The notes: generated from the sequence alone by a model not told the origin. Shown: positions 2,731 through 44,116, numbered from the stretch's first letter. The stretch: 64,000 nucleotides of DNA from a virus (IMGVR_UViG_3300031787_000054), one strand, 5' to 3'. A program made the numbers and translations.

Positions 2731-2749
2731 CAACCAAAAAGGATAAAAT

Positions 2750-3748: not shown

Positions 3749-3765
3749 TAGAAATAGGTTAATAC

Positions 3766-19433: not shown

Positions 19434-20417
19434 TTATATCTCCTCTTTAATAACTTTTCTATATATATCTAAAATAATATGGTTTATTTCTATACTATCT
19501 GGTAAATTTGAATGTTGTTTAATTTCAAGTAGTTCTTTTAATCCTTTTTCTATTTCAGGTTGAACTATTGTTGTGAAATCTAATTCTCCTTTTTTAACCA
19601 ATAATATAAAGTCTCTTTGTTCTTTTTCTAACGGAAAAGCTAAAGAACCTGTTGTCAATAATACCTTTCCTTGGTGTATAACACGTAAGGCATGACTGAC
19701 AGCTTTCCAATCTACGCCTTGGTTCATTTTAGCTAATTTACTTCTTGTACCAAATTCATCGTACGCTTTTTGTAAAGAATTGATAACGTAATCAATCGTT
19801 GAAAACATTGGATACTTTTTACCAATAACTTCAAAATGTTCGTCATATCCTTCATTTAAATCATTTTTAACTTTAGGAACTTGAACAATATGAACATATT
19901 CTAATTTAGTTAGTTCTAATAATTGATTTCTAAAATTAAATAACTTATTAGAATAAGGATAAGTTTCTTTATAATTCTTTAAAGTTTCAAGTACCTTCTC
20001 TACTGAACCCATTCTAGTCCCACGAATACCGTATTTAGCTGCTTGTTGTTTAGCATATCCAATAAAACTAACTACATTCTTATGTACTAATTCATTTCTT
20101 TTTGAAACAATCTCATCCCATAGTGGGTGTTTCTCTAGAATAAATTCATCGGGAGTAAACAATAATTCGATTGCTACTGTTTGTCCTTCTTTTAGCATGT
20201 TCATAAACTTATCTAATGAAAATAATTCAGTGTCTATATCAGAGCTGTTATTTTTATTATTTGAATTATTAGTACTTTGATTAATACTTTTATTAAATTT
20301 ACCTAGTAATATGTCGTCAGCAGATGGTAAGTACACGCCTTTATAATCTTTGTCTGATTTCTCGGTATTTAGTCCAAATAAATGTGACCCAGCTATAGCT
20401 TTCATTATTATTTTCAT
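19434..20417 (-). CDS. Pol-beta-superfamily nucleotidyltransferase-fold protein
   Basis: N-terminal GS-x11-DxD (AGSHLFGLNTEKSDKD) plus a downstream acidic DTE, typical of the minimal NTase fold. Interrupted by an Asn/Ser-rich low-complexity insert. Confidence 0.5.
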   Translation of the reverse strand: MKIIMKAIAGSHLFGLNTEKSDKDYKGVYLPSADDILLGKFNKSINQSTNNSNNKNNSSDIDTELFSLDKFMNMLKEGQTVAIELLFTPDEFILEKHPLWDEIVSKRNELVHKNVVSFIGYAKQQAAKYGIRGTRMGSVEKVLETLKNYKETYPYSNKLFNFRNQLLELTKLEYVHIVQVPKVKNDLNEGYDEHFEVIGKKYPMFSTIDYVINSLQKAYDEFGTRSKLAKMNQGVDWKAVSHALRVIHQGKVLLTTGSLAFPLEKEQRDFILLVKKGELDFTTIVQPEIEKGLKELLEIKQHSNLPDSIEINHIILDIYRKVIKEEI

Positions 20418-20705
20418 CTAGTTATTCTCCTTCTGGCTCCCATCTACCATCAATTCTACTTGCAGCTCTAGCTCCTCCAATTCCTTTATTTTTATGGAAT
20501 ATAGTATATAACTTGGAGGTAACATACCAATTTGTTCTAATCTATTTAAAATTTTATCAGCATCTTGTATATCTCTACCGTCATTGCAATAATGATTTCC
20601 TGTAAGTCTTAATACATTAACTATATTTTGTATAGCTTCACTTCTTTTCACAAACTCTCCCATAATACAAAGAGTCGTATACAACTTCTTTCCCATAGCT
20701 CGCAT
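20418..20705 (-). CDS. hypothetical protein
   Basis: 95-aa ORF. Confidence 0.35.
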   Translation of the reverse strand: MRAMGKKLYTTLCIMGEFVKRSEAIQNIVNVLRLTGNHYCNDGRDIQDADKILNRLEQIGMLPPSYILYSIKIKELEELELQVELMVDGSQKENN

Positions 20706-20859
20706 TGTCTCTACACCTAAAAGTAAAACTTTCTTCAGTAAAATGTATACTATCTAATCCTCTATTACAACTACAAAAATTCTTTGCGAATTTAACTGCT
20801 AATTCTTTTTTATCTACACCACACGATACTAACAACAATAAAATAATTAATTTATACAA
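20638..20859 (-). CDS. small lipoprotein
   Basis: Signal peptide with a lipobox-like LLVSCG. 73 aa. Confidence 0.4.
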   Translation of the reverse strand: MYKLIILLLLVSCGVDKKELAVKFAKNFCSCNRGLDSIHFTEESFTFRCRDNASYGKEVVYDSLYYGRVCEKK

Positions 20860-23831: not shown

Positions 23832-24281
23832 CTAAAAATCTAATCCTAAGCCTAACATTAAAGTACCGTTGCTAATTGCTTGACCGTTGATTGACATTTT
23901 ATCATCTAATAATCTATCAAAGCCGATACCGATTAATTCTTCTTGTTCTGTTCTAACTTTAACAGTGTCTTTCTTTCTATTCACAGAAAACCCGTTAGGT
24001 CCAACACCAGCCATCACTCTAACTCTATTTTTATTTGATTCTTTTTGTTTTTCTTTAAAAATCAGAGGTTTGTCTTTTTTATTATCTTCAGTTAAAATTG
24101 CGGAAATATTCACTTTGGCTTTTCTTTTAACTACCATGTATTTATTACCATCAAAATTATATGTCTCACCATTCTTTAATGTGACAGTGATTTTTGAATC
24201 CTTAAATAATTTAGGAACTTCAATTTCTTCAGCAAAACAATTCACAGTAAATACTAATAATATCAATATGATTAATTTCAT
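23832..24281 (-). CDS. secreted protein
   Basis: N-terminal signal peptide (MKLIILILLVFTVNCFAEE). 149 aa. Confidence 0.45.
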   Translation of the reverse strand: MKLIILILLVFTVNCFAEEIEVPKLFKDSKITVTLKNGETYNFDGNKYMVVKRKAKVNISAILTEDNKKDKPLIFKEKQKESNKNRVRVMAGVGPNGFSVNRKKDTVKVRTEQEELIGIGFDRLLDDKMSINGQAISNGTLMLGLGLDF

Positions 24282-24291
24282 TTCAAACTCC

Positions 24292-24912
24292 TTAGTTAAA
24301 TGTTACAATTCTAATACCAGAACTACCTAAGCTAAATCCTATCTTATTTCCTGAGAACCAAAAACTTTCTCCGTTTGATAATTCATCAACTTTATGCGAG
24401 TTACTACAACTAGAAGAAGTAAACACTCCTACGTTATTACCATTCACTTTTGTATAATATGATGTGCCAGAAACTTGAGTACATGAACTAGATGAACTTG
24501 AATTAATTGTTACTAACGTACCTGCGTCACCTTCTGCACCTTGAGGACCAACAGGACCTTGTTCTCCATTTTGACCAGCAGGACCTTGTGGACCCACTTC
24601 ACCTTCTGGACCTTGCTCTCCTTGCAGACCTTGTTCACCTTGTAAACCATTTAATCCGTTACAAATAATAATACTGTTTTGATATATGTCACCTTCAGAT
24701 GCAGTTAAGCTATCATCTGTGTCTAAGTAAATGTCTGTACTTTTGCCACCAGTTGGACATAATAATCCCTCATCAATAATACTAATTTCAGATACCAATG
24801 AATGTGCTGATTTACCGTTTTCACCGTTGATACCACTTGAACCTTTTTGTAAAGTTAGTTTTCTTTCTTTTCCACAACTAATAACTAAAAACAGTAACAT
24901 TAATAATTTCAT
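24292..24912 (-). CDS. collagen-triple-helix-repeat lipoprotein
   Basis: Lipobox-like LFLVISCG signal. About 20 G-x-y triplets ([43 protein letters not shown]). Ser-rich C-terminal domain. Confidence 0.6.
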
Positions 24913-24921: not shown

Positions 24922-25110
24922 TTATTTTTCTACACAAATAGCTTTTATTTGTAGTTTTTCTTTGTTTTTACTATTCGATTCTTCTTCCATTCTAATTAAT
25001 TCACTTATTGCTTTTTGACAAAGAGCCGTTTCTTTGAACTCTTGTGTTCCAGATGTTATACTACCACCAGCGTAAAGTATGTAATAAATTAATACTATAG
25101 TTGCTTGCAT
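24922..25110 (-). CDS. hypothetical protein
   Basis: 62-aa ORF. Confidence 0.3.
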   Translation of the reverse strand: MQATIVLIYYILYAGGSITSGTQEFKETALCQKAISELIRMEEESNSKNKEKLQIKAICVEK

Positions 25111-25159
25111 TTAATCCTTTCCAAGTTCTTCCTTTACTAATATTGTAGAAGGATTAACT

Positions 25160-25468
25160 TTATAATTTTTCCAACTTATCTACTTCTTCTTGTACTTTCT
25201 TAACCTGCTTAGTATAACTGGATACTATGCTATTAAGTATATCTATGCCATATCCTTTATTTTGCGCTTTTTCATTTCTTCTTTTTGTAAAATGTTCTAG
25301 CTTACCTGTTAAATGTTTTAGTTTACTTCTTAGTGATTTCAATTTCTTATTCTTCCCACTAATCTTAGAAGGAGCTGACTCCCTATACTGGTCACCTTGA
25401 ACTAATTCTAATTCTTGTTGTATCTGATCTTTTGTCTTCTTCACTCTTTGTTTTCTTCCAGATTTCAT
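25160..25468 (-). CDS. Lys-rich basic protein
   Basis: 102-aa highly basic helical ORF. Confidence 0.35.
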   Translation of the reverse strand: MKSGRKQRVKKTKDQIQQELELVQGDQYRESAPSKISGKNKKLKSLRSKLKHLTGKLEHFTKRRNEKAQNKGYGIDILNSIVSSYTKQVKKVQEEVDKLEKL

Positions 25469-25613
25469 AGAACTTCTTTTCTCCTAATACTTTCTTTGCT
25501 TTTTGTAAAACAATAGGTAATGTTATTGGTTTGTTTTCATTCTCACGTAAAGTTGGCAACACTATTGCTCTAACAAAGAATTTAACTGCGTTCTTAGCTT
25601 CTTTTCTTGTCAT
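25392..25613 (-). CDS. hypothetical protein
   Basis: 73-aa ORF overlapping the previous one in another frame. Confidence 0.3.
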   Translation of the reverse strand: MTRKEAKNAVKFFVRAIVLPTLRENENKPITLPIVLQKAKKVLGEKKFYEIWKKTKSEEDKRSDTTRIRISSR

Positions 25614-25620
25614 ATAATCC

Positions 25621-26832
25621 TTAATGAAAGTCTGAGTTATCTTTATCTAAGTATGCTTCTGAAATCCATTTTAATGACTTCCTGTTGTTTGGACAGAACT
25701 TATCATTGTATGATTCAATAGATTTAATAACTACACCTTCTCTGATTTTTTGTTCTGGACAATATACTGAATCACCTTTAGTTAATTCATATACTTTTTC
25801 TTTATTAAAAGGACCTTCGTATAATACTGGAACAACATCAAATCCTCTTTCTTCTGCATACTGACGAACTTCTTTAGGACTTAACCATACGTGTTCACTG
25901 TTATCTAATGTTTTTTTAACATCAAATAAAACAAAATGATGTCTGTCTTTAAATCCATAATCGTAATTCTTTTGGATTCCTTGACCAATTAGCTCACCAT
26001 AAATAGTTTCACCTTCTTTAATCTTATCTTTAGCCTTAACACCTTTTAAAACATTACCATATACATCTTCACCATAGAAACCAGAGTATCCGACTCTGTT
26101 AGTAAGTTCTACGTTATTAGACCCATAACAGAACTCGTATTTAGGTAATAGACCTAGCTTTCCAGAAACGATTCTTTTTAGCATATTTAAGCTCGAAAGA
26201 AGAATGGTCTTAGTATCTCCTTTCCTTGTTTTAAGTTGATTTAAGCACCCAAAGAATTCGTTTAAAGACGGAATTACTGTTGGTAACATAGATGCTCTAC
26301 AGTTACTTCCATGCAATTTTTCCTCAACTACAACTAACTCTCCTTCAGTGAATAGGTTTGGAAACCATTTTACGTTTTCTAGTCCGTTATATTTATGAAA
26401 TAATGGGTTCTCTAGTGGTTTGTTTCTAGATGTTTTAAGTCTAGGAGTAAACTCAGGAGCAGGTGGTTCGTATTTAATAATACCTAACGATTCAGATAAA
26501 TCATCCTCTAGTGAAAACTTAGATACATCAGTAAATTCTGATATTTCTTCTTTAGATATCAGCATACCCTGAGAAGCAAATCCTCTAATACGAATTTGTC
26601 TAACTCTTGAATTATGTAGCTTGATCTTACTTCCTTCTGGAAATAATTTAGATTCTAAGTTATTAGGTAATACTGAATCAATTGGAACGTAGATAATCTC
26701 ATCTCCCACAACGTATTTGTTTTTTGGAATTACCACATGAAATCCATATACGATTGCAATTTCTAATCGTTCAGCGTTTGAGTGAGGATATATCTCTAAT
26801 ATTTGAGTCAGTGGTGTTTTAAATAATGACAT
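25621..26832 (-). CDS. ATP-dependent RNA ligase (Rnl2/Rnl5-like nucleotidyltransferase with N-terminal extension)
   Basis: Motif I lysine in EEKLHGSN at about residue 172, resembling the KxHGxN of the Rnl2 family. About 160 aa of OB-like sequence precede it, as in Deinococcus/Naegleria-type Rnl5. Confidence 0.65.
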   Translation of the reverse strand: MSLFKTPLTQILEIYPHSNAERLEIAIVYGFHVVIPKNKYVVGDEIIYVPIDSVLPNNLESKLFPEGSKIKLHNSRVRQIRIRGFASQGMLISKEEISEFTDVSKFSLEDDLSESLGIIKYEPPAPEFTPRLKTSRNKPLENPLFHKYNGLENVKWFPNLFTEGELVVVEEKLHGSNCRASMLPTVIPSLNEFFGCLNQLKTRKGDTKTILLSSLNMLKRIVSGKLGLLPKYEFCYGSNNVELTNRVGYSGFYGEDVYGNVLKGVKAKDKIKEGETIYGELIGQGIQKNYDYGFKDRHHFVLFDVKKTLDNSEHVWLSPKEVRQYAEERGFDVVPVLYEGPFNKEKVYELTKGDSVYCPEQKIREGVVIKSIESYNDKFCPNNRKSLKWISEAYLDKDNSDFH

Positions 26833-26851
26833 AACCCTCCAGTTATAAAAT

Positions 26852-26939
26852 GAAGTTAGGTAGCGAGTTAAATACTGTCCGAAGTAACTTTAGACGCATT
26901 TTGGTTCGAATCCATAACTAACAGTCTGGACCTAACTTC
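26852..26939 (+). other. tRNA-like T-loop element enclosed by a 10-bp inverted repeat
   Basis: Canonical GGTTCGAATCC at 26903-26913. GAAGTTAGGT (26852-61) pairs perfectly with ACCTAACTTC (26930-39). No canonical cloverleaf could be folded by hand. Confidence 0.3.
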
Positions 26940-26942
26940 AAA

Positions 26943-26978
26943 TTCACTATATCACATTTTTTGATTTTTGTCAAGAAC
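26943..26978 (-). promoter_or_regulatory. conserved promoter copy upstream of the RNA ligase
   Basis: TTGACA (26974-26969), 17-nt spacer, TATAGT (26951-26946). Confidence 0.6.
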
Positions 26979-27439
26979 TATTTCACGTAAATTAAAATTT
27001 CACTATCACCTGTTACTTTATTGATTATTTCTTCAATCTTAGTCCAATCTCCTCCACCTAATCCACTGCCAATTTTAGGCATAGCTACAATCTTACCTTT
27101 ATCCAAGTACTTTCTTTTAATTTCATTCATACATTGTTCAATAGCATCATAGTCGATATATTGTTTTCCATCATATCCGTATTTATCCTGTGTGAAACAG
27201 TTTAGTATTGTTAGTTTATCGGAAACTTTAACAGGTTGAACCATGCCTAGTAATAAGCCTGTTCCAAAGTTCAACAATTTGTAATGTTCACATAATCCGT
27301 GATAGTTTTCCTTCACAACGGGGTATTTTTCTAACATTGTTTTAGCTACACCTGAGCCAAACTTACTCTGACAGTTTACACCATGAGCGATTACTCCCTC
27401 TGTTACATCAAATAAATCACCTTGTACGTATTTAATCAT
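26978..27439 (-). CDS. macro-domain protein (ADP-ribose binding/hydrolase)
   Basis: GDLF...GVIAHGVNC...GSGVA... and GGGDW fit the macro / Appr-1''-p processing fold. Confidence 0.65.
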   Translation of the reverse strand: MIKYVQGDLFDVTEGVIAHGVNCQSKFGSGVAKTMLEKYPVVKENYHGLCEHYKLLNFGTGLLLGMVQPVKVSDKLTILNCFTQDKYGYDGKQYIDYDAIEQCMNEIKRKYLDKGKIVAMPKIGSGLGGGDWTKIEEIINKVTGDSEILIYVK

Positions 27440-28308
27440 TAGAAATCTCCTTTGGCTACTTGTAGTACTTTCAATCCTTTACTTCTTAACATGTCTACTA
27501 CCTGTTGTCTATCATCTAGAGCAAAGAATATATTATACTTAGGTAGTATTTCGTATTCTAATAAAACTTCTTTAGTGATATTGTCTTGTCTAAAGTCTCC
27601 ACTGTATCGCATAAATAATTCATCATAAGGTATATCATGTTTGTTTAACCATTCTTCTGTTTGTTTTCTGTAATCGTCTGGACGACCTGAACACAATACT
27701 ATTTTCATTCCTGTTTCTTTGTATGTTCTAAGTATATGAATTATTTCCATTATAGGTTTATCTTCTGGCATTGTACTAAAGAATAGTTTCCAATCTTTCT
27801 TTCCTTCTCCACGAACAAAGTTTAATCTATGGCTTAAATCCGCGATAGTACCATCAATATCGCAATATATTGCTTGTTCTTTATCTTTAAGTAATCCCTT
27901 TTCAGTAATGATTATGTCAGCTTCTTCTGAACTAATAGGTTGAAACTTAGACAGGAAAGTATCAAGTGCAGACCTTGCTTCTTTATAACAGGTAATAGTT
28001 GGGTGATTTGTTCTTTGTTCCATTCTTCTTAGACATTCTTTTGTTTGAACAATAAAAGAAAAGATAGCTGTTTCATAACCGTGTTCCTTTGCAACAGAAA
28101 GGTATCTATTTCGTTGTTCTTTACTAAAGTTCATACGATCTACAACAATCTTCTGTCCTGCTTCTATTGCGTCTTTAAACGCTTTTAAATGCCCATCTTT
28201 ACCTTGATCGTCTTGAGATATACGAACATATCCTGTTAACTCCAACTTAGAAGCAAATGTTGACTTACCAGAACCAGGAGGACCAACTAATACAATACAA
28301 TGTTTCAT
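27439..28308 (-). CDS. polynucleotide 5'-kinase / 3'-phosphatase
   Basis: N-terminal P-loop VLVGPPGSGKST. C-terminal HAD phosphatase motif YCDIDGTIAD. Layout matches T4 Pnk. Confidence 0.85.
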   Translation of the reverse strand: MKHCIVLVGPPGSGKSTFASKLELTGYVRISQDDQGKDGHLKAFKDAIEAGQKIVVDRMNFSKEQRNRYLSVAKEHGYETAIFSFIVQTKECLRRMEQRTNHPTITCYKEARSALDTFLSKFQPISSEEADIIITEKGLLKDKEQAIYCDIDGTIADLSHRLNFVRGEGKKDWKLFFSTMPEDKPIMEIIHILRTYKETGMKIVLCSGRPDDYRKQTEEWLNKHDIPYDELFMRYSGDFRQDNITKEVLLEYEILPKYNIFFALDDRQQVVDMLRSKGLKVLQVAKGDF

Positions 28309-28309
28309 A

Positions 28310-28537
28310 CTAATCCTTTTTAAATGAATCTATTTTATCACCTAGTATTTCGAATAATTCTGTTATTAGCATTATAATCATAAATAGAAACGCAACAATG
28401 TTGACGAGAGGAATTAAAGCAAACTCTCTTAACTCTTCGCTTTCATAATAATAAGAACCTAATATTACTGATATACTAGGAATTATGTAAACAATAGTCA
28501 ATGCTGAAATGTAAATAAATATGAAATAATCAATCAT
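28310..28537 (-). CDS. small membrane protein
   Basis: 75 aa, two TM helices. Confidence 0.4.
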   Translation of the reverse strand: MIDYFIFIYISALTIVYIIPSISVILGSYYYESEELREFALIPLVNIVAFLFMIIMLITELFEILGDKIDSFKKD

Positions 28538-28681
28538 ATTATTTCCTTTTTCTTAGTTCCTCAATTGTTTTGTTTCTTAGCTGATTGCTGAGCTGATCTC
28601 CGAGCTGACTGTAGAGCTGTATGTTGAGCTGACTAGCTTTTATTATTTTACTTCTTTTCATATTATTCTCCTTAAATAAAG

Positions 28682-28759
28682 TGAGATAGCTGAGAATCGA
28701 ACCCAGTCTTTCCTCTACCCAACGGGTCATCAAGGATGTTTACCAATCACCACTATCTC
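28682..28759 (-). tRNA. tRNA-like gene (perfect acceptor stem and canonical T-arm; anticodon arm not resolved)
   Basis: The minus strand reads GAGATAG...CTGGG-TTCGATT-CTCAG-CTATCTC-A. That gives a perfect 7-bp acceptor stem, a T-stem with a canonical TTCGATT T-loop, and a plausible D-arm (GGTG/CATC with GG in the loop). I could not fold a canonical anticodon stem by eye. No encoded CCA. Confidence 0.4.
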
Positions 28760-28803
28760 ATAAACAGCGAAACTCGCCACTCTCACAACTTCGTATGTGA
28801 CAC

Positions 28804-29091
28804 CTATTTATCTAATTTAAATTCATATTCTCCAAACAAGAAATCACTGATATTTATTTCAATCTTGTTGCATGACCAATATTCTCTTCTAACAAAAACC
28901 CAACCATGTCCATTCTTAGACGTGTCTTTGGTACAGTTTTTTACTAGTATTTTAGACAAAGGAGTGGTAGGGAATATAATCCAGTAATCGCTAAGGTCTT
29001 TCTTTGTATATTCTTCAACTATACGGATTGTATCGTTATAAATATAGAAAGATAAAATACCTAATAAAAATGCACCAATAAACGTTTTCAT
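28804..29091 (-). CDS. membrane-anchored protein
   Basis: N-terminal TM or signal-anchor segment. 95 aa. Confidence 0.4.
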   Translation of the reverse strand: MKTFIGAFLLGILSFYIYNDTIRIVEEYTKKDLSDYWIIFPTTPLSKILVKNCTKDTSKNGHGWVFVRREYWSCNKIEINISDFLFGEYEFKLDK

Positions 29092-29106
29092 TTTATATTC
29101 CTTTGA

Positions 29107-29451
29107 TCACTTCATTTTGGGTGATAATAATTGTTTTATTTCAAGCTCTACTTTTATTTTTAAAGCTTCACATATTTCATTCTTCACTAAGATATAGTCT
29201 TCATCAAGTAAAAAGAAAGGATATACTCTAGTGTAGCTTTCAAGTTTCGGATCTTTAAATTTATAATTTTCTTTTCCAACTGCGATTATTTTATATACTA
29301 AAGTATAAGTTTCTGGTGATTCAAATTCATTGCCTTTTGTAGTATCGCTTTTTAATACACAATCACCTACCTTAAACTTAGGTTTGATTACTTCAGTCTT
29401 TGGTTCTACTGTACAAGACATTAGCAATAATAGTAACAGTATTCTAATCAT
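29107..29451 (-). CDS. lipoprotein
   Basis: Signal peptide with lipobox-like LLLMSCT. 114 aa. Confidence 0.45.
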   Translation of the reverse strand: MIRILLLLLLMSCTVEPKTEVIKPKFKVGDCVLKSDTTKGNEFESPETYTLVYKIIAVGKENYKFKDPKLESYTRVYPFFLLDEDYILVKNEICEALKIKVELEIKQLLSPKMK

Positions 29452-29825
29452 TATTTACTCCTCTCAATAATACGTTCCATGTTAATCTTAATTGCTTCTT
29501 CAGTTGGAACATAGTCATTGTAAAACTGTACGTTATCTGGTACAAATATTGAGCTATCTCTAAAGTTAGGATTATATCCACGTCTTAACATCTCAGTAAC
29601 TAATTGTTCAAACCTAGTTTCTAAGAACTTCATCTTATTGTAGAAGAACTTAACATGACCTTTACCTAACGTGTAGGTATTAGGAATCTCATCAAAGCTA
29701 AATGACTTACCTTTACGATTAAGTGAGGTACGCAAGTTATTAGGTAGCCTAGCAATCTCACGATACTCAGCTACTAGGTGCTTCGTTGACAATTCTGTAA
29801 CAGGTACTACGTTAATACGTGTCAT
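29451..29825 (-). CDS. denV: pyrimidine-dimer DNA glycosylase (T4 endonuclease V family)
   Basis: Near co-linear similarity to T4 DenV throughout: MTRIN..V.EL...HL.AEYRE, GHV.FFY.K..FL..R, YxPxEA.I. Confidence 0.9.
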   Translation of the reverse strand: MTRINVVPVTELSTKHLVAEYREIARLPNNLRTSLNRKGKSFSFDEIPNTYTLGKGHVKFFYNKMKFLETRFEQLVTEMLRRGYNPNFRDSSIFVPDNVQFYNDYVPTEEAIKINMERIIERSK

Positions 29826-29840: not shown

Positions 29841-29876
29841 GTGAGCATATCACATTTAGATAAATTTGTCAAGAAC
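29841..29876 (-). promoter_or_regulatory. conserved promoter copy (variant -10 TATGCT) upstream of denV
   Basis: TTGACA (29872-29867), 17-nt spacer, TATGCT (29849-29844). Confidence 0.5.
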
Positions 29877-30650
29877 TTTTTTTGTAATGTCGTAAATAGG
29901 AGGGTCGTACTTTGCTCTTGAGTAATATCTTAGTGCTGAAATAACTCCGTTATCCCCTTCTTCTTGAAAATCATTGAAGATACGATGGAAACGAAAATAG
30001 AAACTAAACCCTAATCTACTAAACACTGTTTCTTTTGTTAGCTTTGTTTGAATTAAAGCTGAAACTTGATGATATACGGTTGATGTTTGAAAATACTTAG
30101 TGTGTGATTTGATTACGTGTACAATTAAATGTAGTAGCCAGAAAAAGTCTAGCAAAAATAGAAACAGAACTAAACTCTTCTTCTGAAACAACGCACGATA
30201 TATAATAGACCATGTACTAAGTCCACAAAAATCAGGTAAAAACTTACGCTTGCCTTTTGTTGTGTGAGTATTCTGAAAAAAACTACCACGCTTTAGTATA
30301 TCTTTCGTTATTTGTTTAACTCTTTCTTTTTCACCAAGAAAACCTGCCAGTATTATGTAGCCGATGCTGTTATCTCTTGATACTGTTCTGCTGTCTGTCC
30401 ACAATCTACCTTCTTCTGTGTCTTGAATACTATGATATCTACGTAATTTACCGTCTTTCATAAAACGATACATAGCTAAAGCTGAAACAGCGGACGCAGA
30501 CATTGTGCTGTTCCATGTATTATCACCCGATACTAATTTTTGGTACACAGAGTTTGTTGTTAAGAAGTTAGAATCAACAGCATTGAAATGATCTGGTGTT
30601 TTTTGCACCAGAAAACCAAGGTCGTCCATAAATCTATCTAACTTTTTCAT
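29856..30650 (-). CDS. hypothetical protein with central hydrophobic segment
   Basis: 264-aa ORF downstream of a promoter. Confidence 0.4.
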   Translation of the reverse strand: MKKLDRFMDDLGFLVQKTPDHFNAVDSNFLTTNSVYQKLVSGDNTWNSTMSASAVSALAMYRFMKDGKLRRYHSIQDTEEGRLWTDSRTVSRDNSIGYIILAGFLGEKERVKQITKDILKRGSFFQNTHTTKGKRKFLPDFCGLSTWSIIYRALFQKKSLVLFLFLLDFFWLLHLIVHVIKSHTKYFQTSTVYHQVSALIQTKLTKETVFSRLGFSFYFRFHRIFNDFQEEGDNGVISALRYYSRAKYDPPIYDITKKVLDKFI

Positions 30651-30661: not shown

Positions 30662-32284
30662 TTATATACCACATACTCCACCAACACACTGAACTTCGTT
30701 TTCTTCAAACACCATTCCTTCGTTGGCTAGTGCTTCTTCTAGTGAAACTCTAGTAAGGGGTTGACCTCCTCGGCATCCATCTGGATAACAAGTAAATCCT
30801 CTTAGTCTTTTTGCATATTTCAATAATGTATTTGAATTCTTATCTAATGAACTTTCATTATTGTCGTCTGTTCCCCATGAAGACATATTACATGTTGAAC
30901 TGATAGACATATCAACGTAGTTCTGAATGTCAGCTTGAAACTTAACACGTTGTCTAAACGAAAGATCGTATGAATCTTTTATGTTCTCAATTTTAACTCC
31001 ACGTTCAAGAAGTCTTTTAACTGAACCATCGACAACGTATTGAAATAACCATTTACCTTCTTTAAAGTATCTGCGTTTATATGCTTTACAAAATAAAGGT
31101 TCAATTCCTGTTGTTGTTTCAGCAAGTATCCCTATTGTTCCAGTTGGTGCAATCGCTCTGACACCTTTAGGCACAGACACTCCTAATTCTTTAGCAAACG
31201 TGTATGCTGTATCATTTGATTGTTCTTCATATATAGCTAACCATTTATGTAACTCTGGAGTGCATACGTAGTCTTCGCCACGCATCATTAACCACTCATG
31301 AATACCACCTAAACCTAATCCAATTCTGTTGTTTTTTAATCCAACTTCTTTTATTTTATCATTAGGTACATCGGAATATATTCCTCCACAAATTAAAAAC
31401 TTTGTTGACATTTCAATATCTTTTCTTAATTGCTTAGTGTCTTTTATTCTGTTTAACCAAATAGTGCCCAGGTTACATTTATCTGAATCGTCTTCACTCA
31501 CTACTTCACAACAAGCGTTGCGTAGTGACTCGTTATCTTTTCTAAAGTTAAAGCTAAATCCTGGTTCTGCTGTACTAAATGCTTGTGAACAATTTCTTCT
31601 CCATACTTCTTTAGCGTGTAAATATAATGGGTGTTCTTTGTTTTCAATTGCCATGAAAAATTCAGTGTCATATATAACTGATATGTTTGTTAACTCCATG
31701 TCTAATTTGAAATTAAAATCTTGTTCTTTTAGTTTCTTTAAATCTTCTGTGTGATTTTTTAAATCAAGAAATTTAAATATGTCAGCATGTTTCCAATTTA
31801 ATCCTGCCCAAATAGCTGAACGACGCTGACCTCCTTGCATTATATTTCTTCCAGCTTCATTGACCATTCGCATTAAAGCAATAGGACCTGTACTAAATCC
31901 TCCTGTTCTTTTTACTAAAGCACCTTCATGTCTCAAAGCTGAATAATCAACACCGATTCCTCCACCAGTCATTAGTGCTGAAGTAATTCGATACATTAAC
32001 TCAGCCCATTCTTCACGAGAATCACCTGCTCTAAATAAAAAACAATTATTAACCTGATGGAATGGTCTACCTGCTGAATATAAATATCTACCACCAGGAA
32101 TAAATCTTCTATCTTCAATCATGTTTACAATATATTTTTTATCTTCAGGAGAGAGTCTTTGACCACAAACTGCTTCAACTATTCTGTTTGACATGTCAGA
32201 CCAGTTCTCTTGACCATTCATTGAATACTTTTGAATAAAAACATCTTGACTAAACTTATTTGAAAATACATCGTACTTTGACAT
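30662..32284 (-). CDS. ribonucleotide reductase (large, monomeric; class II-like)
   Basis: RNR signature GGGIGVDYSALRHEGALVKRTGGFSTGPIALMRMVNEAGRNIMQGGQRRSAIW. NxCxE-like NACCE. C-terminal Cys pair CVGGVC. Confidence 0.75.
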   Translation of the reverse strand: MSKYDVFSNKFSQDVFIQKYSMNGQENWSDMSNRIVEAVCGQRLSPEDKKYIVNMIEDRRFIPGGRYLYSAGRPFHQVNNCFLFRAGDSREEWAELMYRITSALMTGGGIGVDYSALRHEGALVKRTGGFSTGPIALMRMVNEAGRNIMQGGQRRSAIWAGLNWKHADIFKFLDLKNHTEDLKKLKEQDFNFKLDMELTNISVIYDTEFFMAIENKEHPLYLHAKEVWRRNCSQAFSTAEPGFSFNFRKDNESLRNACCEVVSEDDSDKCNLGTIWLNRIKDTKQLRKDIEMSTKFLICGGIYSDVPNDKIKEVGLKNNRIGLGLGGIHEWLMMRGEDYVCTPELHKWLAIYEEQSNDTAYTFAKELGVSVPKGVRAIAPTGTIGILAETTTGIEPLFCKAYKRRYFKEGKWLFQYVVDGSVKRLLERGVKIENIKDSYDLSFRQRVKFQADIQNYVDMSISSTCNMSSWGTDDNNESSLDKNSNTLLKYAKRLRGFTCYPDGCRGGQPLTRVSLEEALANEGMVFEENEVQCVGGVCGI

Positions 32285-32354: not shown

Positions 32355-33839
32355 TTATGAAGCAGATAATCTTTTTCGAATATCATTTAAAGATTCTTCA
32401 ATTAAAAAGTTACCATTTTCAAAAACTGTTTTCAATAAATTCTCTTTAGAGATATTAGAACTTGTATCATCGGAATATTCTAATACACCAGAATTATTTT
32501 TGAATACTGTCACTTTACCTAACGCTGAATTTTTTGTACCGTCGTCTGTCTTAGGTGCTTTGAATATTGCTTTCTCTGTTCCATTAATTGTAACAGATGT
32601 TGCTTTCATTGCAAAACCTAAAGTGTCTCTTGTGATAAATTGATATGTGTATGAACCGATTCCTAGTACAACATTAGTAGAAGCGAATCCTTTTTGTTTT
32701 AATCTCTCACAAATTTCTTTACATCTTTCAAGTGTAATCGAGTCACCGTAAATAGCTCCGATTTTAGGATTAAGTATTTTGTATCCTTGTGATGATACTG
32801 TTCCACCGAATGTTTCATATAATAATTCAATAACACCTTTGTTCTCAGGTGAACCTAGAGGAGCTTCAGGGTCTCCACATAGAATGTCAGCAGGGTCTCC
32901 ACTATCAGGACGAACCACTACTTTATCTAATGAACCTGCTCCACCATCACGAGCTAGAATTGATTCTTTTAATGAAGGTAAAATGTTTGTTACAACATTA
33001 AATAAATCCCAAGTATCTGACACAATACTAACAATACCTGTTGGATATAGTTCTTCAATGAATCTTCTATATGTTTCTCGTTCGTCTTCATATCCTCCTG
33101 CACACATTACTGAATGTTCGCTTGCTGGAACTGAACAACCAACTAATTCTTTAGTAACATCTGCATTGTAGTATTGTTCTGCATAATTAATTGCGGGTAA
33201 TGTATCTGTTCCAACGAATGATAGTAGGTGTCCAACACCAGATCGTGCTGAGTCTTCAGGTCCACTCTGTCCTCTCATAGAGAAATCGTGTCCTTGAAAT
33301 TCAACGCCAGCAGTAGAGCCTGTTGTCTCCAGTGCGTAATTATCTAATACTGAGCGGTAAGCTTTAGCAATACTTGCTGTTGTCGCTGGTTTCCATAGTA
33401 GTGATGAAAGAATAGTTTCAAGATAATTTGTTAACCAAAAGAATTCATCTTTAGTATTCTCGATTGTCATTACTGGAACTCGAAATGGTACTAACGTTCC
33501 TTCAGCTAATGCTGTTACTTTTAACGGTAAATAACCTAAATCATGTAAGTCTTCTAAGTGTTTTGTTTCAACATTTGGATTAAATAAATAAGCAGATACT
33601 TGACGCTTGTATTCATTAATAATTTCTTCTTTCTGTTTACTAAAGAACTGTGAATTAAATAATTCGTTTAATTCTTTTAATGCACCTTGTGTTCCAAAAG
33701 CTACAACGTTCTCAATTCCGTTGGCATGTTTACCTGAACGTGGTGTCCATGTACTGTATACCTTTGATGTGTTCTTTGGATACTGTACTCTATGACTAAG
33801 CTTGTAACCGTCACATGCTAATGTTGCAATTAAATTCAT
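32355..33839 (-). CDS. nadV: nicotinamide phosphoribosyltransferase family protein (NadV/Nampt-like)
   Basis: 494 aa. N-terminal LACDGYKLSHRVQYP and overall Nampt-like organisation. Confidence 0.8.
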   Translation of the reverse strand: MNLIATLACDGYKLSHRVQYPKNTSKVYSTWTPRSGKHANGIENVVAFGTQGALKELNELFNSQFFSKQKEEIINEYKRQVSAYLFNPNVETKHLEDLHDLGYLPLKVTALAEGTLVPFRVPVMTIENTKDEFFWLTNYLETILSSLLWKPATTASIAKAYRSVLDNYALETTGSTAGVEFQGHDFSMRGQSGPEDSARSGVGHLLSFVGTDTLPAINYAEQYYNADVTKELVGCSVPASEHSVMCAGGYEDERETYRRFIEELYPTGIVSIVSDTWDLFNVVTNILPSLKESILARDGGAGSLDKVVVRPDSGDPADILCGDPEAPLGSPENKGVIELLYETFGGTVSSQGYKILNPKIGAIYGDSITLERCKEICERLKQKGFASTNVVLGIGSYTYQFITRDTLGFAMKATSVTINGTEKAIFKAPKTDDGTKNSALGKVTVFKNNSGVLEYSDDTSSNISKENLLKTVFENGNFLIEESLNDIRKRLSAS

Positions 33840-34487: not shown

Positions 34488-35342
34488 TTACTTAATGTTA
34501 ATAAAGGGAATAGCGTTACTTCCTGTCATAGTTGGAAGTCTTCCGTCCCAACGTTGGATAGCTTCGTACTGGATTAATTCAGATGTTAGTGTTTTTAATT
34601 TTAAAGCATTAGACTTTGCCTCTGCTTCAGCTATTGCTAACATTGATTTAGCTTTACCTTCAGCTTCTGCAATTTGTTTTTTAGCTTGTGCTTCAGCTTC
34701 TCTTAGTTCGTTCTCTCTTTGTTGTGCTCTTTGTGTTGCTTCAATCTTAGAGTTAAGAGCAGATACAACGTTGTCTGGTAATCTAATAGAACCAATTAAA
34801 TATACTTTCTCAATAATAATACCATGCGGTTTTAAACTCTCTCTAACTAATCCTTCAACCTTTAGAAATAAGTCTGTCTTACCAGAACCATAAACAGATT
34901 CAACAGTCATTGTAGATGCTACAGTATTTAGTGCATCTCTTAAAGCGTTCTTTACTACAACAGCTTTTATTTCATCAATACCTTTCCTATACTTTTGGAA
35001 TAGTTTGCTGATCTTAGAATCATCAACAGTGAATGTTACACCCATATCAATGTTACAAGATAGACCTTCTGACGTTTGAAAAGTAAAAGATTCATCTGTT
35101 TCAGAGTCTTCCATTTCGTCTCTCGTGTAGATTTTTGTTTGTTGGAAAGTAGGGAAGATGTATAGTTCCTCATTGATCCCAACCCAATATCTACCTACAC
35201 CTAGTACTTCGTGGTCAACACCCTTACTACCGCCTAGTAGGTAAATCTTAACACCAACATTACCTGCTGGAACTTTAGAACAAGACGTTGTGAATAACGT
35301 CAGTAACAATACAATAAAAAAACCCTTCAGAAAATTAATCAT
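34488..35342 (-). CDS. SPFH/band-7 (stomatin/prohibitin-like) membrane protein
   Basis: N-terminal TM, SPFH-like core, Ala/Glu-rich coiled-coil tail (EAEAQAKKQIAEAEGKAKSMLAIAEAEAK). Confidence 0.55.
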   Translation of the reverse strand: MINFLKGFFIVLLLTLFTTSCSKVPAGNVGVKIYLLGGSKGVDHEVLGVGRYWVGINEELYIFPTFQQTKIYTRDEMEDSETDESFTFQTSEGLSCNIDMGVTFTVDDSKISKLFQKYRKGIDEIKAVVVKNALRDALNTVASTMTVESVYGSGKTDLFLKVEGLVRESLKPHGIIIEKVYLIGSIRLPDNVVSALNSKIEATQRAQQRENELREAEAQAKKQIAEAEGKAKSMLAIAEAEAKSNALKLKTLTSELIQYEAIQRWDGRLPTMTGSNAIPFINIK

Positions 35343-36106
35343 TCAACTTCTCCTTTGAAATTAAATACTCGTTTAATGCCTTCTTCAAATAATACAAGAG
35401 AACCTCTAGAATAAATACCATGTGTTGTGTATAGATATACTTCGGAAGCTCCCATTTTATATAACTGTTTAGCACATTGAATAAAGGTAGCTCCTCCATC
35501 ACAAATGTCGTCCACTATTAAACACTTTTTATTTGTTATAGGATATAGTGAGTCGGCTTCTAATGAAAGAATCTTACCTGTTGATTGTTCTCTTACCTTG
35601 TTGAAATAAATACTAGGTATATTAGTTAATGAATTTAACTTACTATAACGAACACTAGCTCCTTTGTCTGGATAGATAAGTACATCTGTTCCAGTTAATA
35701 AAGTAACAGTTTGAATGTATTTGTAAGGTATTTCATTTATACAATTAGCTATACCATGTTTATCGGAATGAGCATCAATCAAATACACAGTACTAAAGTT
35801 AAGTGAATTAATCAAATGAGCAAATGGGTGAATACCGAATGTCGAATCATTACTTACCTCCTTATCCTGTCTTCCGTATGGAAGATAGTTAATACGTAGT
35901 GTTCCTAGTTTTTCTGAAACAGAGCCAATCATAAATCGTAATTGAGCGATTGTTATAAGCTCTGACTCTTTATCAAAGTCCCATTCAATTACGTTATTAA
36001 ACGTTATTTTCATTTTGTTATACACATCTTCTGGGAGTTTCCAGACTTGTGTACAAGTATCAGGGAATGTTGTTGGAGTTACGTTGTAACCGTTTAGTGT
36101 TATCAT
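35339..36106 (-). CDS. phosphoribosyl-diphosphate synthetase-like (Prs/PRTase-fold) protein
   Basis: PRPP-binding motif CLIVDDICDGGATF. Shorter (255 aa) than housekeeping Prs. Confidence 0.65.
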   Translation of the reverse strand: MITLNGYNVTPTTFPDTCTQVWKLPEDVYNKMKITFNNVIEWDFDKESELITIAQLRFMIGSVSEKLGTLRINYLPYGRQDKEVSNDSTFGIHPFAHLINSLNFSTVYLIDAHSDKHGIANCINEIPYKYIQTVTLLTGTDVLIYPDKGASVRYSKLNSLTNIPSIYFNKVREQSTGKILSLEADSLYPITNKKCLIVDDICDGGATFIQCAKQLYKMGASEVYLYTTHGIYSRGSLVLFEEGIKRVFNFKGEVE

Positions 36107-37257: not shown

Positions 37258-37830
37258 TTACCTCCTTAGTTCATATTCAAATCTTAGTTTTCTTTTTTGT
37301 TTTAGTAATTTAGCAACACCATTCTTGATAAGTTCTTGCAACTTAAGTGCTGTCTTTGTGTACTGATTATCTTTCTTAGCGTATAACTGTCTTAAGTGTA
37401 TCTTCTTTCCATTAAGCTCAACAACTCTTGGATTGCTGTTATTCTCTTCACCAACATACTTAAAGTTACTAGCTTTATATATTGTTCCTATGTGTCCAAC
37501 GTTGGGGTCTGTATATGAAAGAATAATAGGTGGGCAGTCTTTATTCTTTAATATGTTTAATGTCTTTGCTAAGAAGAATGATTCAGTATTCTTTTCTGTG
37601 TTATCAATTAAACAAAATCTTCTTAGTTCAATATACTTATCGCTATCTATATTCTTACCCATTGGTTTACCATATAAAGCAACACCTATTAGGTTATTAT
37701 TTAGGTCACGTAAAGTAAATATAAACTTCTGTTGTAGTGATCTATATGATTTTGAATAGTGCCATGTGATAATGAAGTCCATAATTTCTTTAGTTAATGT
37801 TTCTTCTTTTACAATGTATTTAGACTTCAT
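37258..37830 (-). CDS. hypothetical protein
   Basis: 190-aa ORF. Confidence 0.4.
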   Translation of the reverse strand: MKSKYIVKEETLTKEIMDFIITWHYSKSYRSLQQKFIFTLRDLNNNLIGVALYGKPMGKNIDSDKYIELRRFCLIDNTEKNTESFFLAKTLNILKNKDCPPIILSYTDPNVGHIGTIYKASNFKYVGEENNSNPRVVELNGKKIHLRQLYAKKDNQYTKTALKLQELIKNGVAKLLKQKRKLRFEYELRR

Positions 37831-40532: not shown

Positions 40533-41089
40533 ATTGTTACACCCTTCATAATTTTTTGTACATTTCTCAACACCTTCTTATCGAAGTCACTACACAAATA
40601 CTCACATACATCAGTTAAATCTTGAATGATGTTATCCTCTAAGTATAATGTTGTATCTAGTATTGGGATATCCTTCAAGCTTCTTATGTCACGTTTAAGA
40701 AGAAAGAATAAGTCTGACCTCTTAGATTGATCTAAAACATTCCACAACAATACTAGACAACCAGCGTGTGCTAGTATCTCTTCGTGTAATATATCTACTC
40801 TATCTTGTACTTTATGTTTGATATTATAAAGAGATGGTCTATCTAATCTATCCTTGTGACCAGTTGAATGTATTAACTCGTGCATCAGTGTCACATAACC
40901 CCAATTCTTATTAGAAGAAAGCTTCTCGTTTATTACTATAATATCAAGTGGAATCATATACTTACCAAATGAATCTATCTTATCACTGTTAAATATCTTA
41001 GGGAAAACAAAGTCATCATAGTTTAATGAACCACCTATTAGTTTATCCAATGCGTGTAGTTGAATGTTCATTTGTTCTCCTTTGTTCAT
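40529..41089 (-). CDS. HExxH zinc-metallopeptidase-like protein
   Basis: LMHELIHSTGH motif. 186 aa. Overlaps the ATP-grasp gene by 47 nt (translational coupling). Confidence 0.5.
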   Translation of the reverse strand: MNKGEQMNIQLHALDKLIGGSLNYDDFVFPKIFNSDKIDSFGKYMIPLDIIVINEKLSSNKNWGYVTLMHELIHSTGHKDRLDRPSLYNIKHKVQDRVDILHEEILAHAGCLVLLWNVLDQSKRSDLFFLLKRDIRSLKDIPILDTTLYLEDNIIQDLTDVCEYLCSDFDKKVLRNVQKIMKGVTI

Positions 41090-41843
41090 TGATGTATTGT
41101 ATGATATTGTTAACCCATATATCTAAGTTAAGTGAGTTAAGTCCTGGACTAGAATTAACTTCAATAACATAGAACCGTTTCTTATCCCTATCAAATATAA
41201 TATCAACTCCACCGAATAATAAACCCAAACCTTGTACAGCTTTAATACACATTTGTTGTGCATTTAAATTACATGTTGATATCTCTGGATTACATTTTCT
41301 GAATTGACAGTTATGTGATTTATATATCTTAACACTAGAATCATTAGGTATCTTCTCATACACACCTAGAATCTTACCATTGAATACATGTACTCTATAC
41401 TCTTTCTTATTAACAATAGGTCTTGTAATATATAAATCAGTATCTCTTATTGTGTTGTCATATCTAACAACCATATCTCTACCACGTACATAGAAATATC
41501 CGTTAGTATCTTTGTATCTGTTAATATCAAATGTTGATCTATCACCTTCAATTAAATCAAAGTATTTAGGTGTTCTAACTCCTTCGATCTGTTTTAGATT
41601 CTTAATCATATCGTGTTTGTTAGATGCTTTACGCACAGCTTGTTTATCATTAAGTGTTAATGTCTGGTTGCTGTCATTGGTTCTACTCTCGCCCCATCTA
41701 ACGAATACATTGCTATGTTTAGGAGTCATGTATTCTCTAACCCTGCGTACTTTCCTAAAGGCTCTTGAATTTTTTAATTTAAGATACAATAACTTACCTG
41801 TCTTACATGATTTATTTGAGTAAGAAAAGTTTAATGTTGTCAT
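41043..41843 (-). CDS. ATP-grasp family ligase (RimK/GshB-like)
   Basis: C-terminal ATP-grasp signature EYRVHVFNGKILGV ... GLLFGGVDIIFDRDKKRFYVIEVNSSPGL. Confidence 0.6.
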   Translation of the reverse strand: MTTLNFSYSNKSCKTGKLLYLKLKNSRAFRKVRRVREYMTPKHSNVFVRWGESRTNDSNQTLTLNDKQAVRKASNKHDMIKNLKQIEGVRTPKYFDLIEGDRSTFDINRYKDTNGYFYVRGRDMVVRYDNTIRDTDLYITRPIVNKKEYRVHVFNGKILGVYEKIPNDSSVKIYKSHNCQFRKCNPEISTCNLNAQQMCIKAVQGLGLLFGGVDIIFDRDKKRFYVIEVNSSPGLNSLNLDIWVNNIIQYINEQRRTNEHSTTRIG

Positions 41844-42735: not shown

Positions 42736-42736
42736 A

Positions 42737-43018: not shown

Positions 43019-43033
43019 ACAATCCTCCTTTAA

Positions 43034-44107: not shown

Positions 44108-44116
44108 ACTTACTCC

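Follow-up and report, generated by a model that had tools for sequence, protein, structure and literature searches.

A Poa1p-like macro domain gene between phage RNA-repair genes may belong to NAD+ rebuilding

The window analysed here is a stretch of 64,000 nucleotides of viral DNA (IMGVR_UViG_3300031787_000054), best explained as coming from the block of early genes in a tailed phage genome, which we hold with moderate confidence as one part of the whole reading developed below. ORF calling found three genes on the minus strand at exactly the positions where the original prediction had placed a contiguous cassette.

28308-27439, minus strand: Pnk, 289 aa, predicted bifunctional polynucleotide 5'-kinase / 3'-phosphatase, T4 PseT-type Pnkp
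27439-26978, minus strand: macro, 153 aa, stand-alone Poa1p-like macro domain protein of the Adpp / T4 Tk.4-AdfM family
26832-25621, minus strand: ligase, 403 aa, predicted ATP-dependent RNA ligase of the Rnl5 type (DraRnl/NgrRnl family), OB-like domain at the N-terminus

The genes are indeed contiguous, the Pnk stop codon and the macro start codon having base 27439 in common (TAATG) and 145 nt lying between macro and ligase, and the macro is close to the 150 aa expected of it. In a sister phage (L001) the order Pnk-macro-ligase is kept, but small extra ORFs lie between the genes. A macro gene between Pnk and ligase was seen in these two phages only.

Pnk is a T4-type bifunctional Pnkp by both domain criteria, and its enzymatic activity on RNA ends is predicted from sequence. 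The N-terminal kinase domain (PF13671, 8e-18 in Pfam) carries a P-loop at residue 9 (GPPGSGKS), and the DIDGT motif (residue 150) falls within a HAD_PNKP domain (PF25109, 2e-37) that spans residues 145-289, as anticipated for a P-loop kinase joined to a DxDGT phosphatase. The protein further matches phrog_505 at 2e-59 and, in the PDB, Pnkp1 (4xrp, 4e-27) and T4 Pnk (1ltq, 4e-17), with the kinase domains of both aligned.

The ligase is of the Rnl5 type and has RNA ligases rather than DNA ligases as its nearer kin, and ATP-dependent sealing of 3'-OH/5'-PO4 nicks in duplex RNA is its predicted activity. Pfam identified the N-terminal OB domain (PF21189, 9e-13) at residues 9-92 as well as PF09414 (1.4e-25), and the score of 172.8 bits against TIGR02306 exceeds the curated cut-off of 151.15. 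The covalent nucleotidyltransferase motifs (I, III, IV and V) comprise KLHG (motif I, K172), GELIG at 279 (E280), FVLFD at 300 (D304) and EGVVIK at 365 (K370), and none of K172, E280, D304, K370 and K388 varies among 26 homologues. NgrRnl is the best PDB match by sequence (1.5e-13), its residues 15-127 aligning with residues 13-125 of the window ligase. The AF2 model (pLDDT 87.9) consists of a beta-domain (7-93), a linker and an NTase domain, and in Foldseek NgrRnl was the top and full-length match (~1e-19), followed in score by T4 Rnl2 (1e-9), with DNA ligases at 3e-4 or worse. The predicted architecture, with the motif-I lysine at about residue 172 and an N-terminal OB-like extension rather than the Rnl1 arrangement, was thereby confirmed. 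Like NgrRnl and DraRnl, the protein has an OB-like domain followed by the NTase domain and lacks a C-terminal domain, but it is ~60 aa longer, only ~22% identical to NgrRnl, and has in the model an extra helical segment (~190-225) that comes after motif I and ahead of the next strands.

A Pol-beta-fold nucleotidyltransferase, likewise foreseen in the original prediction, lies 5.2 kb from the ligase and is RlaP.

19434-20417, minus strand: RlaP-family Pol-beta nucleotidyltransferase (PF10127 at 2e-13, phrog_388 at 1e-78)

Pnk, the Rnl5-type ligase and RlaP constitute a known and recurrent phage RNA-repair set, and RlaP-Pnk-RNA ligase repair cassettes were reportedly noted in phages and bacteria by Burroughs and Aravind in 2016. 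Such cassettes also appear in Iyer et al. 2021 (PMC7824862) and in Carruthers et al. 2025 (PMC12776372), according to which RlaP extends damaged RNA by 1-2 nt at the 3' end. That the three genes form a repair set is supported by their recurrence in relatives: among 54 loci centred on relatives of the window ligase, Pnk was nearby in 19 and RlaP in 15, adjoining ligase or Pnk, while a macro gene was found in one. This single locus reads Adps-macro-Namat-ligase. In relatives the three genes are tightly clustered, as Pnk-RlaP-ligase or RlaP-Pnk-ligase, and the closest relatives have RlaP between Pnk and ligase and no macro, whereas in the window and its sister phage RlaP is ~5 kb off and the macro occupies the slot between Pnk and ligase.

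The set resembles PseT and Rnl1/Rnl2 of T4, which repair tRNA against the anticodon nuclease PrrC, in its end-healing followed by end-sealing, in the two-domain Pnkp (P-loop kinase, then DxDGT HAD phosphatase) and in that the repair genes are scattered among unrelated ones within a block for nucleotide metabolism. It differs in that the window ligase is Rnl5-type (OB + NTase) and not Rnl1, T4 Rnl2 matching the NTase domain only, and in being accompanied by RlaP. Host ribonucleases, for example anticodon nucleases, would leave 2',3'-cyclic-phosphate and 5'-OH ends, of which the T4-type Pnkp would phosphorylate the 5' end and strip the 3' or cyclic phosphate; RlaP could put back one or two missing 3' nucleotides, and the Rnl5-type ligase would close the 3'-OH/5'-phosphate nick in folded RNA.

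The 145 nt between macro and ligase contain two features of their own.

26946-26974, minus strand: sigma-70-like promoter candidate, TTGACA-17-TATAGT with a TG extended -10
26852-26939, minus strand: imperfect but conserved hairpin of 88 nt, in the 5' leader of the ligase gene, closing stem GAAGTTAGGT/ACCTAACTTC

The promoter candidate directly follows the macro stop codon, upstream of the ligase, and with 11/12 matches is the best in 25000-29200, a region in which the total of promoter-like sites is not above that of shuffles and for which the sigma-70 consensus may not be the promoter type of the host. Its hexamers are identical in the sister phage. The position of this site between the two genes, like the extra ORFs in the sister phage, favours the reading of two independent modules developed below. 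As a minor side finding, the ligase is preceded by the conserved hairpin leader (MFE -24.3 kcal/mol, z -1.67), after which come a Shine-Dalgarno sequence, GGAGG (26840-26836), and, at 26832, the ATG start codon of the ligase. Compared with the sister phage, the hairpin has a 31-nt identical core and, on a by-eye reading, a closing stem kept by two-sided changes; RNAalifold gave 22 pairs, of which 1 is compensatory and 3 are wobble-compatible. It belongs to no Rfam family and no further copies were found. Independently of the role of the macro, it might, with low probability, be a functional RNA tied to the ligase, such as a regulator or a decoy. The two tRNA-like elements that had been suggested nearby were not recovered: ARAGORN found no tRNA or tmRNA in the whole window, and Rfam had no match reaching gathering score anywhere in the window, nor any meaningful one for 25000-29500 when E values up to 10 were admitted.

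The macro protein matches PF01661 at 2.5e-5 in Pfam and phrog_335 at 3e-41. Its AF2 model (pLDDT 93.5) retrieved Poa1p, BT1257, DarG, SCO6735 and TARG1 in Foldseek with E values from 6e-12 to 1e-9. The best structural match (6e-12) is yeast Poa1p, the ADP-ribose-1''-phosphate phosphatase that follows Tpt1 in tRNA splicing, and by alignment equivalents of its H23 and N26 are kept in the window macro; S30 and F152 are not conserved, K26 and G128 taking their place in a by-eye reading of the alignment, and the window has no Tpt1 or 2H partner among the ORFs searched. Within the phage Poa1p-like family two members have been tested, Adpp and T4 Tk.4/AdfM, and the role of neither is in RNA repair (doi 10.64898/2026.01.28.702374, doi 10.1101/2025.11.20.689424). 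The window macro is 25% identical (3e-8) to Adpp of Vibrio phage Gary, the one Adpp tested biochemically, and 34% identical (1e-21) to the NARP1-associated macro of phiAbaA1. All family-invariant residues are kept, including H19 and N22, which align in invariant columns with the essential H24 and N27 of Adpp (Gary numbering), the mutants H24A and N27A losing function (Table S4 of doi 10.64898/2026.01.28.702374).

Two further genes of the window bear on the role of the macro.

32355-33839, minus strand: Namat of NARP1 (predicted nicotinamide ADP-ribose transferase), 2e-176 to PDB 9W5X/9W5W (SPbetaL1 Namat)
35339-36106, minus strand: Adps-like PRPS-fold enzyme (predicted ADPR pyrophosphokinase, initial enzyme of NARP1), 255 aa, PF00156/PF14572 only

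The match of Namat to human NAMPT (3e-70) is weaker than that to SPbetaL1 Namat. R310 is the equivalent of the catalytic R306, a K stands at the variable R40 position, and the motif GIGSYTYQF supplies aromatic Y/F at the positions F392/Y396 of the adenine-binding selectivity clamp. The Adps-like protein is 32% identical (5e-22) to Adps of Vibrio phage Gary with the K192 equivalent kept, has no Pribosyltran_N match in Pfam and falls below every NCBIfam PRPS cut-off. Adps is defined by a C-terminal truncation, the alpha11-alpha12 module being absent from its PRPS-like fold (PMC13586617), with which the length of 255 aa is consistent, and it is from this length that the truncation is inferred. 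Both genes lie 4-8 kb upstream of the macro on the same strand, with a gene for an SPFH/Band7 protein and three other small ORFs between them.

In the work of Osterman et al. 2026, 15% of NARP1 operons contained a macro of the Poa1p-like kind, Adpp, which was shown to convert ADPR-1P to ADPR, feeding NARP1 NAD+ reconstitution against aRES defence (doi 10.64898/2026.01.28.702374). The same three protein families as in NARP1-AP of Vibrio phage Gary (Adps, Adpp and Namat) are present in the window, but the macro is situated outside the NARP1 operon, between Pnk and ligase, and Adps and Namat are separated by other genes. Among 80 loci centred on macro relatives, NAMPT-like genes (14) and PRPS-like genes (11), often abutting the macro, were the commonest specific neighbours. 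The macro is accordingly read as an NAD-rescue enzyme of the Adpp type because NARP1-type genes recur near its relatives, because the window itself encodes Namat and an Adps-like protein upstream, and because the essential His and Asn are kept, a NARP1-associated member is 34% identical and Poa1p is the top structural match. Adps and Namat would turn the ADP-ribose and nicotinamide left by an NAD-depleting defence back into NAD+, and the macro would most likely be the Adpp that converts ADP-ribose-1''-phosphate, the product of a RES-type NADase, into ADP-ribose usable by NARP1. Against this stands the distance from Namat, ~9 ORFs or ~4.0 kb downstream on the same strand, since the criterion of Osterman et al. 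places the macro within two genes of Adps or Namat. Also against it, a rough NJ tree of the family sets both tested proteins in the other major clade, and within the macro's own sub-clade the neighbourhoods contain Pnk and RlaP with about the same frequency as NARP1 genes.

The identity to the tested Adpp is, moreover, slightly lower than that to T4 Tk.4 (32% over the full length, E 2e-17), whose phage has no NARP1 next to tk.4, and this counts against an Adpp role. An AdfM-type orphan antitoxin would remove DarT2-type ADP-ribose from thymidines of phage DNA and be unrelated to both RNA repair and NARP1, a role that we consider rather unlikely for the window macro, although a protein of this type could combine anti-DarT2 and Adpp activities. 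Knockout of tk.4 makes T4 sensitive to DarTG2 (HIDEN-SEQ preprint, doi 10.1101/2025.11.20.689424), and Tk.4 belongs to the same macro family and gives its PDB matches in the same order. The NCBIfam profile of the DarG macro domain matches the window macro at 5e-14, Foldseek found DarG at 1.5e-10 and the thymidine-ADPr hydrolase SCO6735 at 4e-10, and most phage genomes with this macro family, T4-like ones, are without NARP1 alongside, all of which favours the antitoxin. Poa1p and BT1257 score slightly above DarG, however, NARP1 genes are near the macro in the window, metagenomic phages have NARP1-type genes beside this family more often than any other specific genes, and AdfM itself is known by genetic phenotype only. 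T4 also differs in that tk.4 lies between tk and vs, and the GGGDW loop is GKGNW in Tk.4.

The original prediction had the macro work with Pnk and ligase on damaged RNA; in such a model it would strip ADP-ribose from RNA phosphate ends or clear ADPR-1''-phosphate or 2'-phosphate by-products of NAD-dependent repair. The place of its gene between Pnk and ligase, in an order preserved in the sister phage, speaks for such a role, and the overlap of its start with the Pnk stop would fit co-expression with Pnk and so weighs against an Adpp role. Likewise, an RNA ligase is found within 6 kb in 7 of the 80 macro-centred loci (~9%) and Pnk in 6. Some macrodomains of the TARG1/MacroD/PARG type reverse phosphate-end RNA ADP-ribosylation (PMC11833690), Poa1p is placed downstream of tRNA splicing by a second-hand citation, and Iyer et al. 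2021 (PMC7824862) proposed NAD-dependent RNA repair for a subset of phage macros. Most of the evidence nevertheless points the other way, and we think a function on RNA ends very improbable. The one ligase-centred locus with a macro has it within NARP1, and RlaP, not macro, is what separates Pnk from ligase in the closest ligase relatives. No Tpt1/KptA or 2H family match was obtained with Pfam in 40 window ORFs, which include all of >=120 aa between 8 and 53 kb and part of those below ~90 aa. Repair with a Pnkp of the T4 type gives no junction bearing a 2'-phosphate on which Tpt1 could act. Fusions of macro to Pnk or to ligase are absent among 114 homologues, the T4-likes have macro and pseT/rnl genes unlinked, the three genes are parted by ORFs in the sister phage, and no member of the macro family is known to act on RNA. 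With the family roles and the missing tRNA-like elements added, the proposed processing of ADP-ribosylated or 2'-phosphate RNA ends found no support.

The Adpp reading thus leaves the macro physically in the cluster but probably not a component of RNA repair, since Pnk and RlaP recur around relatives of the ligase and macro hardly does. Its location between Pnk and ligase would be a lineage-specific gene order and not a sign of work on RNA ends; unrelated genes among repair genes are acceptable because T4 has four of them between rnlA and pseT (rnlA-alc-pseT.3-pseT.2-pseT.1-pseT). On balance, we lean towards two independent, already described counter-defence modules lying side by side, in which the macro most likely serves NAD+ rebuilding. 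The analysis establishes the identity of the domains, the families they belong to, the kept catalytic residues and the neighbourhood counts; enzymatic activities in this phage, and the preference for Adpp over AdfM as the role of the macro, are deduced from these. It is a long shot that the macro was instead recruited into the RNA-repair cassette, in the slot of RlaP, and frees RNA phosphate ends of ADP-ribose, or of some other block derived from it, before Pnk and ligase act; if true, the macro-containing cassette would be a counter to an RNA-ADP-ribosylating defence.

In the best-supported reading, the genes at 25621-28308 belong to two known modules lying side by side, with the macro gene going with NARP1, the NAD+-reconstitution pathway of Adps and Namat. 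Pnk, the Pol-beta nucleotidyltransferase RlaP and an Rnl5-type ligase would provide RNA repair, while NARP1 and a dispersed macro protein resembling Adpp, the Poa1p-like ADP-ribose-1''-phosphate phosphatase, would provide NAD+ reconstitution. The descriptive part of the original prediction was right except for its two tRNA-like elements, since the ORFs and domains were found and neither ARAGORN nor Rfam at its gathering score reported a hit anywhere in the window. Three ORFs occupy the cassette, all on the minus strand and with the expected Pnk, macro and ligase domains, and the nucleotidyltransferase proposed nearby is real and is RlaP:

28308-27439, minus strand: Pnk, 289 aa, PF13671 and PF25109 (HAD_PNKP)
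27439-26978, minus strand: macro protein, 153 aa, PF01661, phrog_335 at 3e-41
26832-25621, minus strand: RNA ligase, 403 aa, N-terminal PF21189 OB domain and PF09414 nucleotidyltransferase (NTase) domain
19434-20417: RlaP, Pol-beta protein, PF10127, phrog_388 at 1e-78

Pnk carries the P-loop GPPGSGKS and the HAD motif DIDGT, and its relatives include Capnocytophaga Pnkp1 (4e-27) and T4 Pnk (4e-17). As had been proposed, the ligase is Rnl5-like and not of the Rnl1 type. It belongs to TIGR02306 (RNA_lig_DRB0094, the DraRnl family of NCBIfam) with 172.8 bits against a curated cut-off of 151.15, and its best solved relative by sequence is Naegleria NgrRnl (1.5e-13), followed by T4 Rnl2 (1.8e-5). 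In an AlphaFold2 model made from 26 homologues (pLDDT 87.9), a disordered linker joins the N-terminal beta-domain to the NTase domain. In Foldseek this model matched NgrRnl over its full length (~1e-19) and T4 Rnl2 in the NTase domain only (1e-9), whereas DNA ligases, with which the enzyme does not cluster, matched at 3e-4 or worse. The motif I lysine is K172, which is invariant across the homologue alignment together with E280, D304, K370 and K388. RlaP extends the 3' ends of damaged RNA by 1-2 nt (PMC12776372), and repair sets of the Pnk/RlaP/ligase type have been described in phages by Iyer et al. 2021. By the biochemistry of these families, we infer that Pnk, RlaP and the Rnl5-type ligase form an RNA-repair module.

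The order Pnk-macro-ligase is not a conserved unit. It was found elsewhere only in a sister phage (locus L001, 67-71% protein identity), in which a 60-aa ORF splits Pnk from the macro gene and a 138-aa ORF splits the macro gene from the ligase. Ligase relatives one step more distant (59-65% identity) show the order Pnk-RlaP-ligase; a PolyA_pol-type NTase gene lies upstream and a macro gene is absent. In a ligase-centred survey, based on iterative profile searches over the ORFs of 54 loci, Pnk was encoded within 6 kb of the ligase at 19 loci and RlaP at 15, and a macro protein at a single one. At that locus (L118, 1645-7104 of IMGVR_UViG_3300013101_000073) the order is Adps-macro-Namat with the Rnl5-type ligase immediately after, showing that the RNA-repair ligase recurs next to phosphatase-bearing NARP1, the macro gene being on the NARP1 side. 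In the loci of close ligase relatives (L101, L102 and L103, ~100-7200 in each), genes for a DruA-domain protein, a PolyA_pol/CCA-type NTase (PF01743), Pnk, RlaP and the ligase are clustered, with a metallophosphatase and a PhoH/PIN protein nearby.

A macro-centred survey covered neighbours within 6 kb at 80 loci of macro relatives. Ribonucleotide reductase (RNR) was a neighbour at 17 loci, NAMPT-like genes at 14 and PRPS-like genes at 11; the RNA ligase was present at 7, Pnk at 6 and RlaP at 4. Direct abutment on the macro gene was often seen for the NAMPT-like and PRPS-like genes. No fusion of a macro domain to a Pnk or ligase domain was found among 114 macro homologues, the sole fusion being to the unrelated PF27001, and none tied a macro domain to Pnk or ligase among the 120 ligase homologues listed. 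In T4-like phages, the macro family is represented by tk.4, located between tk and vs and distant from pseT and rnlA, which are themselves separated in T4 by four unrelated genes. The T4 tk.4 gene (adfM) also lies ~5 kb from nrdC.11, annotated as a nucleotidyltransferase (436-1446 and 5923-6390 of the T4 locus).

These distributions bear on the proposal that the macro protein acts on RNA ends together with Pnk and the ligase. The case for such a role consists of gene position and the start/stop overlap, and the overlap is not kept in the sister phage. An NAD-dependent route would further need Tpt1/2H partners, and no Tpt1/KptA, 2H or RtcB was present among the window ORFs scanned. The interpretation stands for RNA repair but not for the part assigned to the macro protein, whose action on RNA ends has a low probability.

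NARP1 itself is encoded on the cassette strand, 4-8 kb upstream of the cassette and in the same order in the sister phage:

32355-33839, minus strand: Namat, E 2e-176 with PDB 9W5X/9W5W and 3e-70 with human NAMPT
35339-36106, minus strand: Adps-like PRPS-like protein, short (255 aa), below all PRPS family cut-offs

The two PDB entries are the Namat of SPbetaL1 (PMC12774641). The catalytic Arg is kept in the window Namat, and aromatics occupy both selectivity-clamp helix positions. The Adps-like protein shares 32% identity (5e-22) with the Adps of Vibrio phage Gary, including the conserved catalytic-loop Lys; these features fit the truncated architecture that PMC13586617 describes for Adps. The Adps and Namat genes are separated by three small ORFs and by an SPFH/Band7 (HflK-like) gene at 34488-35342.

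The macro family has two roles with experimental support, Adpp and AdfM (doi 10.64898/2026.01.28.702374; doi 10.1101/2025.11.20.689424). Adpp is found in 15% of NARP1 operons (Osterman et al., bioRxiv 2026, doi 10.64898/2026.01.28.702374) and converts the ADP-ribose-1''-phosphate made by aRES, a RES-domain defence system, to ADP-ribose, which NARP1 can use for rebuilding NAD+; the effect is lost with the mutants H24A and N27A (doi 10.64898/2026.01.28.702374). AdfM was named from HIDEN-SEQ, where knockout of T4 tk.4 sensitised the phage to DarTG2 (doi 10.1101/2025.11.20.689424). The AlphaFold2 model of the window macro protein (pLDDT 93.5) has Poa1p as its best structural match (6e-12), followed by BT1257, DarG, SCO6735 and TARG1. 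By sequence it is 34% identical to the NARP1-associated macro protein of Acinetobacter phage phiAbaA1 (1e-21), 25% to the tested Gary Adpp (3e-8) and 32% to T4 Tk.4 (2e-17). All family-invariant residues are kept, among them H19 and N22, the counterparts of H24 and N27 in Adpp.

The main rival to a place in NARP1 is an AdfM-like, anti-DarT2 function, or both the Adpp and AdfM activities in one enzyme. Neither sequence nor tree sets the two roles apart: the catalytic His, Asn and Gln positions are common to the window protein, Gary Adpp and T4 Tk.4, and a rough neighbour-joining tree placed both tested proteins in one clade and the window protein in the other, with NARP-adjacent macro proteins in both.

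Two candidate elements lie in the 145 nt that separate the macro gene from the ligase gene:

26974-26946, minus strand: strong sigma-70-like promoter candidate, TTGACA-17-TGnTATAGT, before the hairpin
26939-26852, minus strand: imperfect hairpin of 88 nt, immediately 5' of the Shine-Dalgarno sequence of the ligase gene

A 31-nt identical hairpin core is present in the sister phage (L001, 6905-7037), and the closing stem differs there by compensatory changes on both strands that keep the pairing; RNAalifold predicted 22 pairs. The hairpin matched no Rfam family; across 25000-29500, a search of Rfam at E<=10 yielded just two matches, both at chance level, on the opposite strand and inside the ligase ORF. 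Two metagenome scans for the leader element returned no copies, and an 18-mer scan of viral contigs returned only the sister phage and one coincidental coding-region match (L099). In the next ligase relatives after the sister phage, no intergenic sequence precedes the ligase gene. A tRNA-like cloverleaf was considered but gave way to the long imperfect hairpin, since the prediction makes the 'T-loop-like' GGATTCGAACC one strand of a helix. With two copies known, the sequence is best read as a putative 5'-leader stabilising hairpin or RNase III-type site, and it may be the source of the tRNA-like element in the original prediction.

The window is a tailed-phage genome segment of low GC content (~31%) that encodes terminase, portal, DnaB helicase and a DNA polymerase of family B; a long block of its genes, between ~8 kb and 53 kb, is on the minus strand. 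At the nucleotide level, 25000-29000 had no blastn match in a set of 50,697 phage records. Other genes of the block include:

29451-29825: T4 endoV-like pyrimidine-dimer glycosylase
30662-32284, minus strand: gene for a class of ribonucleotide reductase, directly after the NARP1 genes
37258-37830, minus strand: Mom-family protein, PF25680 at 2e-29
41043-41843, minus strand: RimK-like ATP-grasp gene
43034-44107, minus strand: glutamine amidotransferase-like gene
44117-45607, minus strand: Amidoligase_2 gene

Between the RNR and glycosylase genes, a 264-aa minus-strand ORF (29856-30650) without Pfam, PHROG or NCBIfam matches keeps the same position in the sister phage. The Mom-family protein points to hypermodified DNA bases in this phage. 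A run of 77-aa ORFs, of which the first three are tandem paralogues (32-39% identity), is flanked by the genes at 41043-45607; this arrangement may represent a system for peptide ligation or modification. Several small minus-strand ORFs at 20638-20859, 23832-24912 and 29107-29451 have N-terminal lipoprotein-like signal peptides with Cys at the end (for example ...LLVSCG, ...VISCGK and ...LLMSCT), and one of them (24292-24912) has collagen-like GxQ/GxE repeats.

The region holds known kinds of modules and raises no new question, unless the low-probability action on RNA ends or the leader RNA holds. Adpp-like macro genes can sit several kilobases from NARP1, so the published 15% of NARP1 operons, a count limited to macro genes no more than two genes away, may be too low a figure for the NARP1 phages bearing the phosphatase. 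If the best explanation is true, the block would be a textbook case of how counter-defence modules accumulate among the early genes of one phage, here RNA repair and NAD+ reconstitution together with a T4 endoV-like UV-repair glycosylase and possibly an anti-DarT function. It would also caution that a gene sandwiched by two functional partners may differ from them in function.
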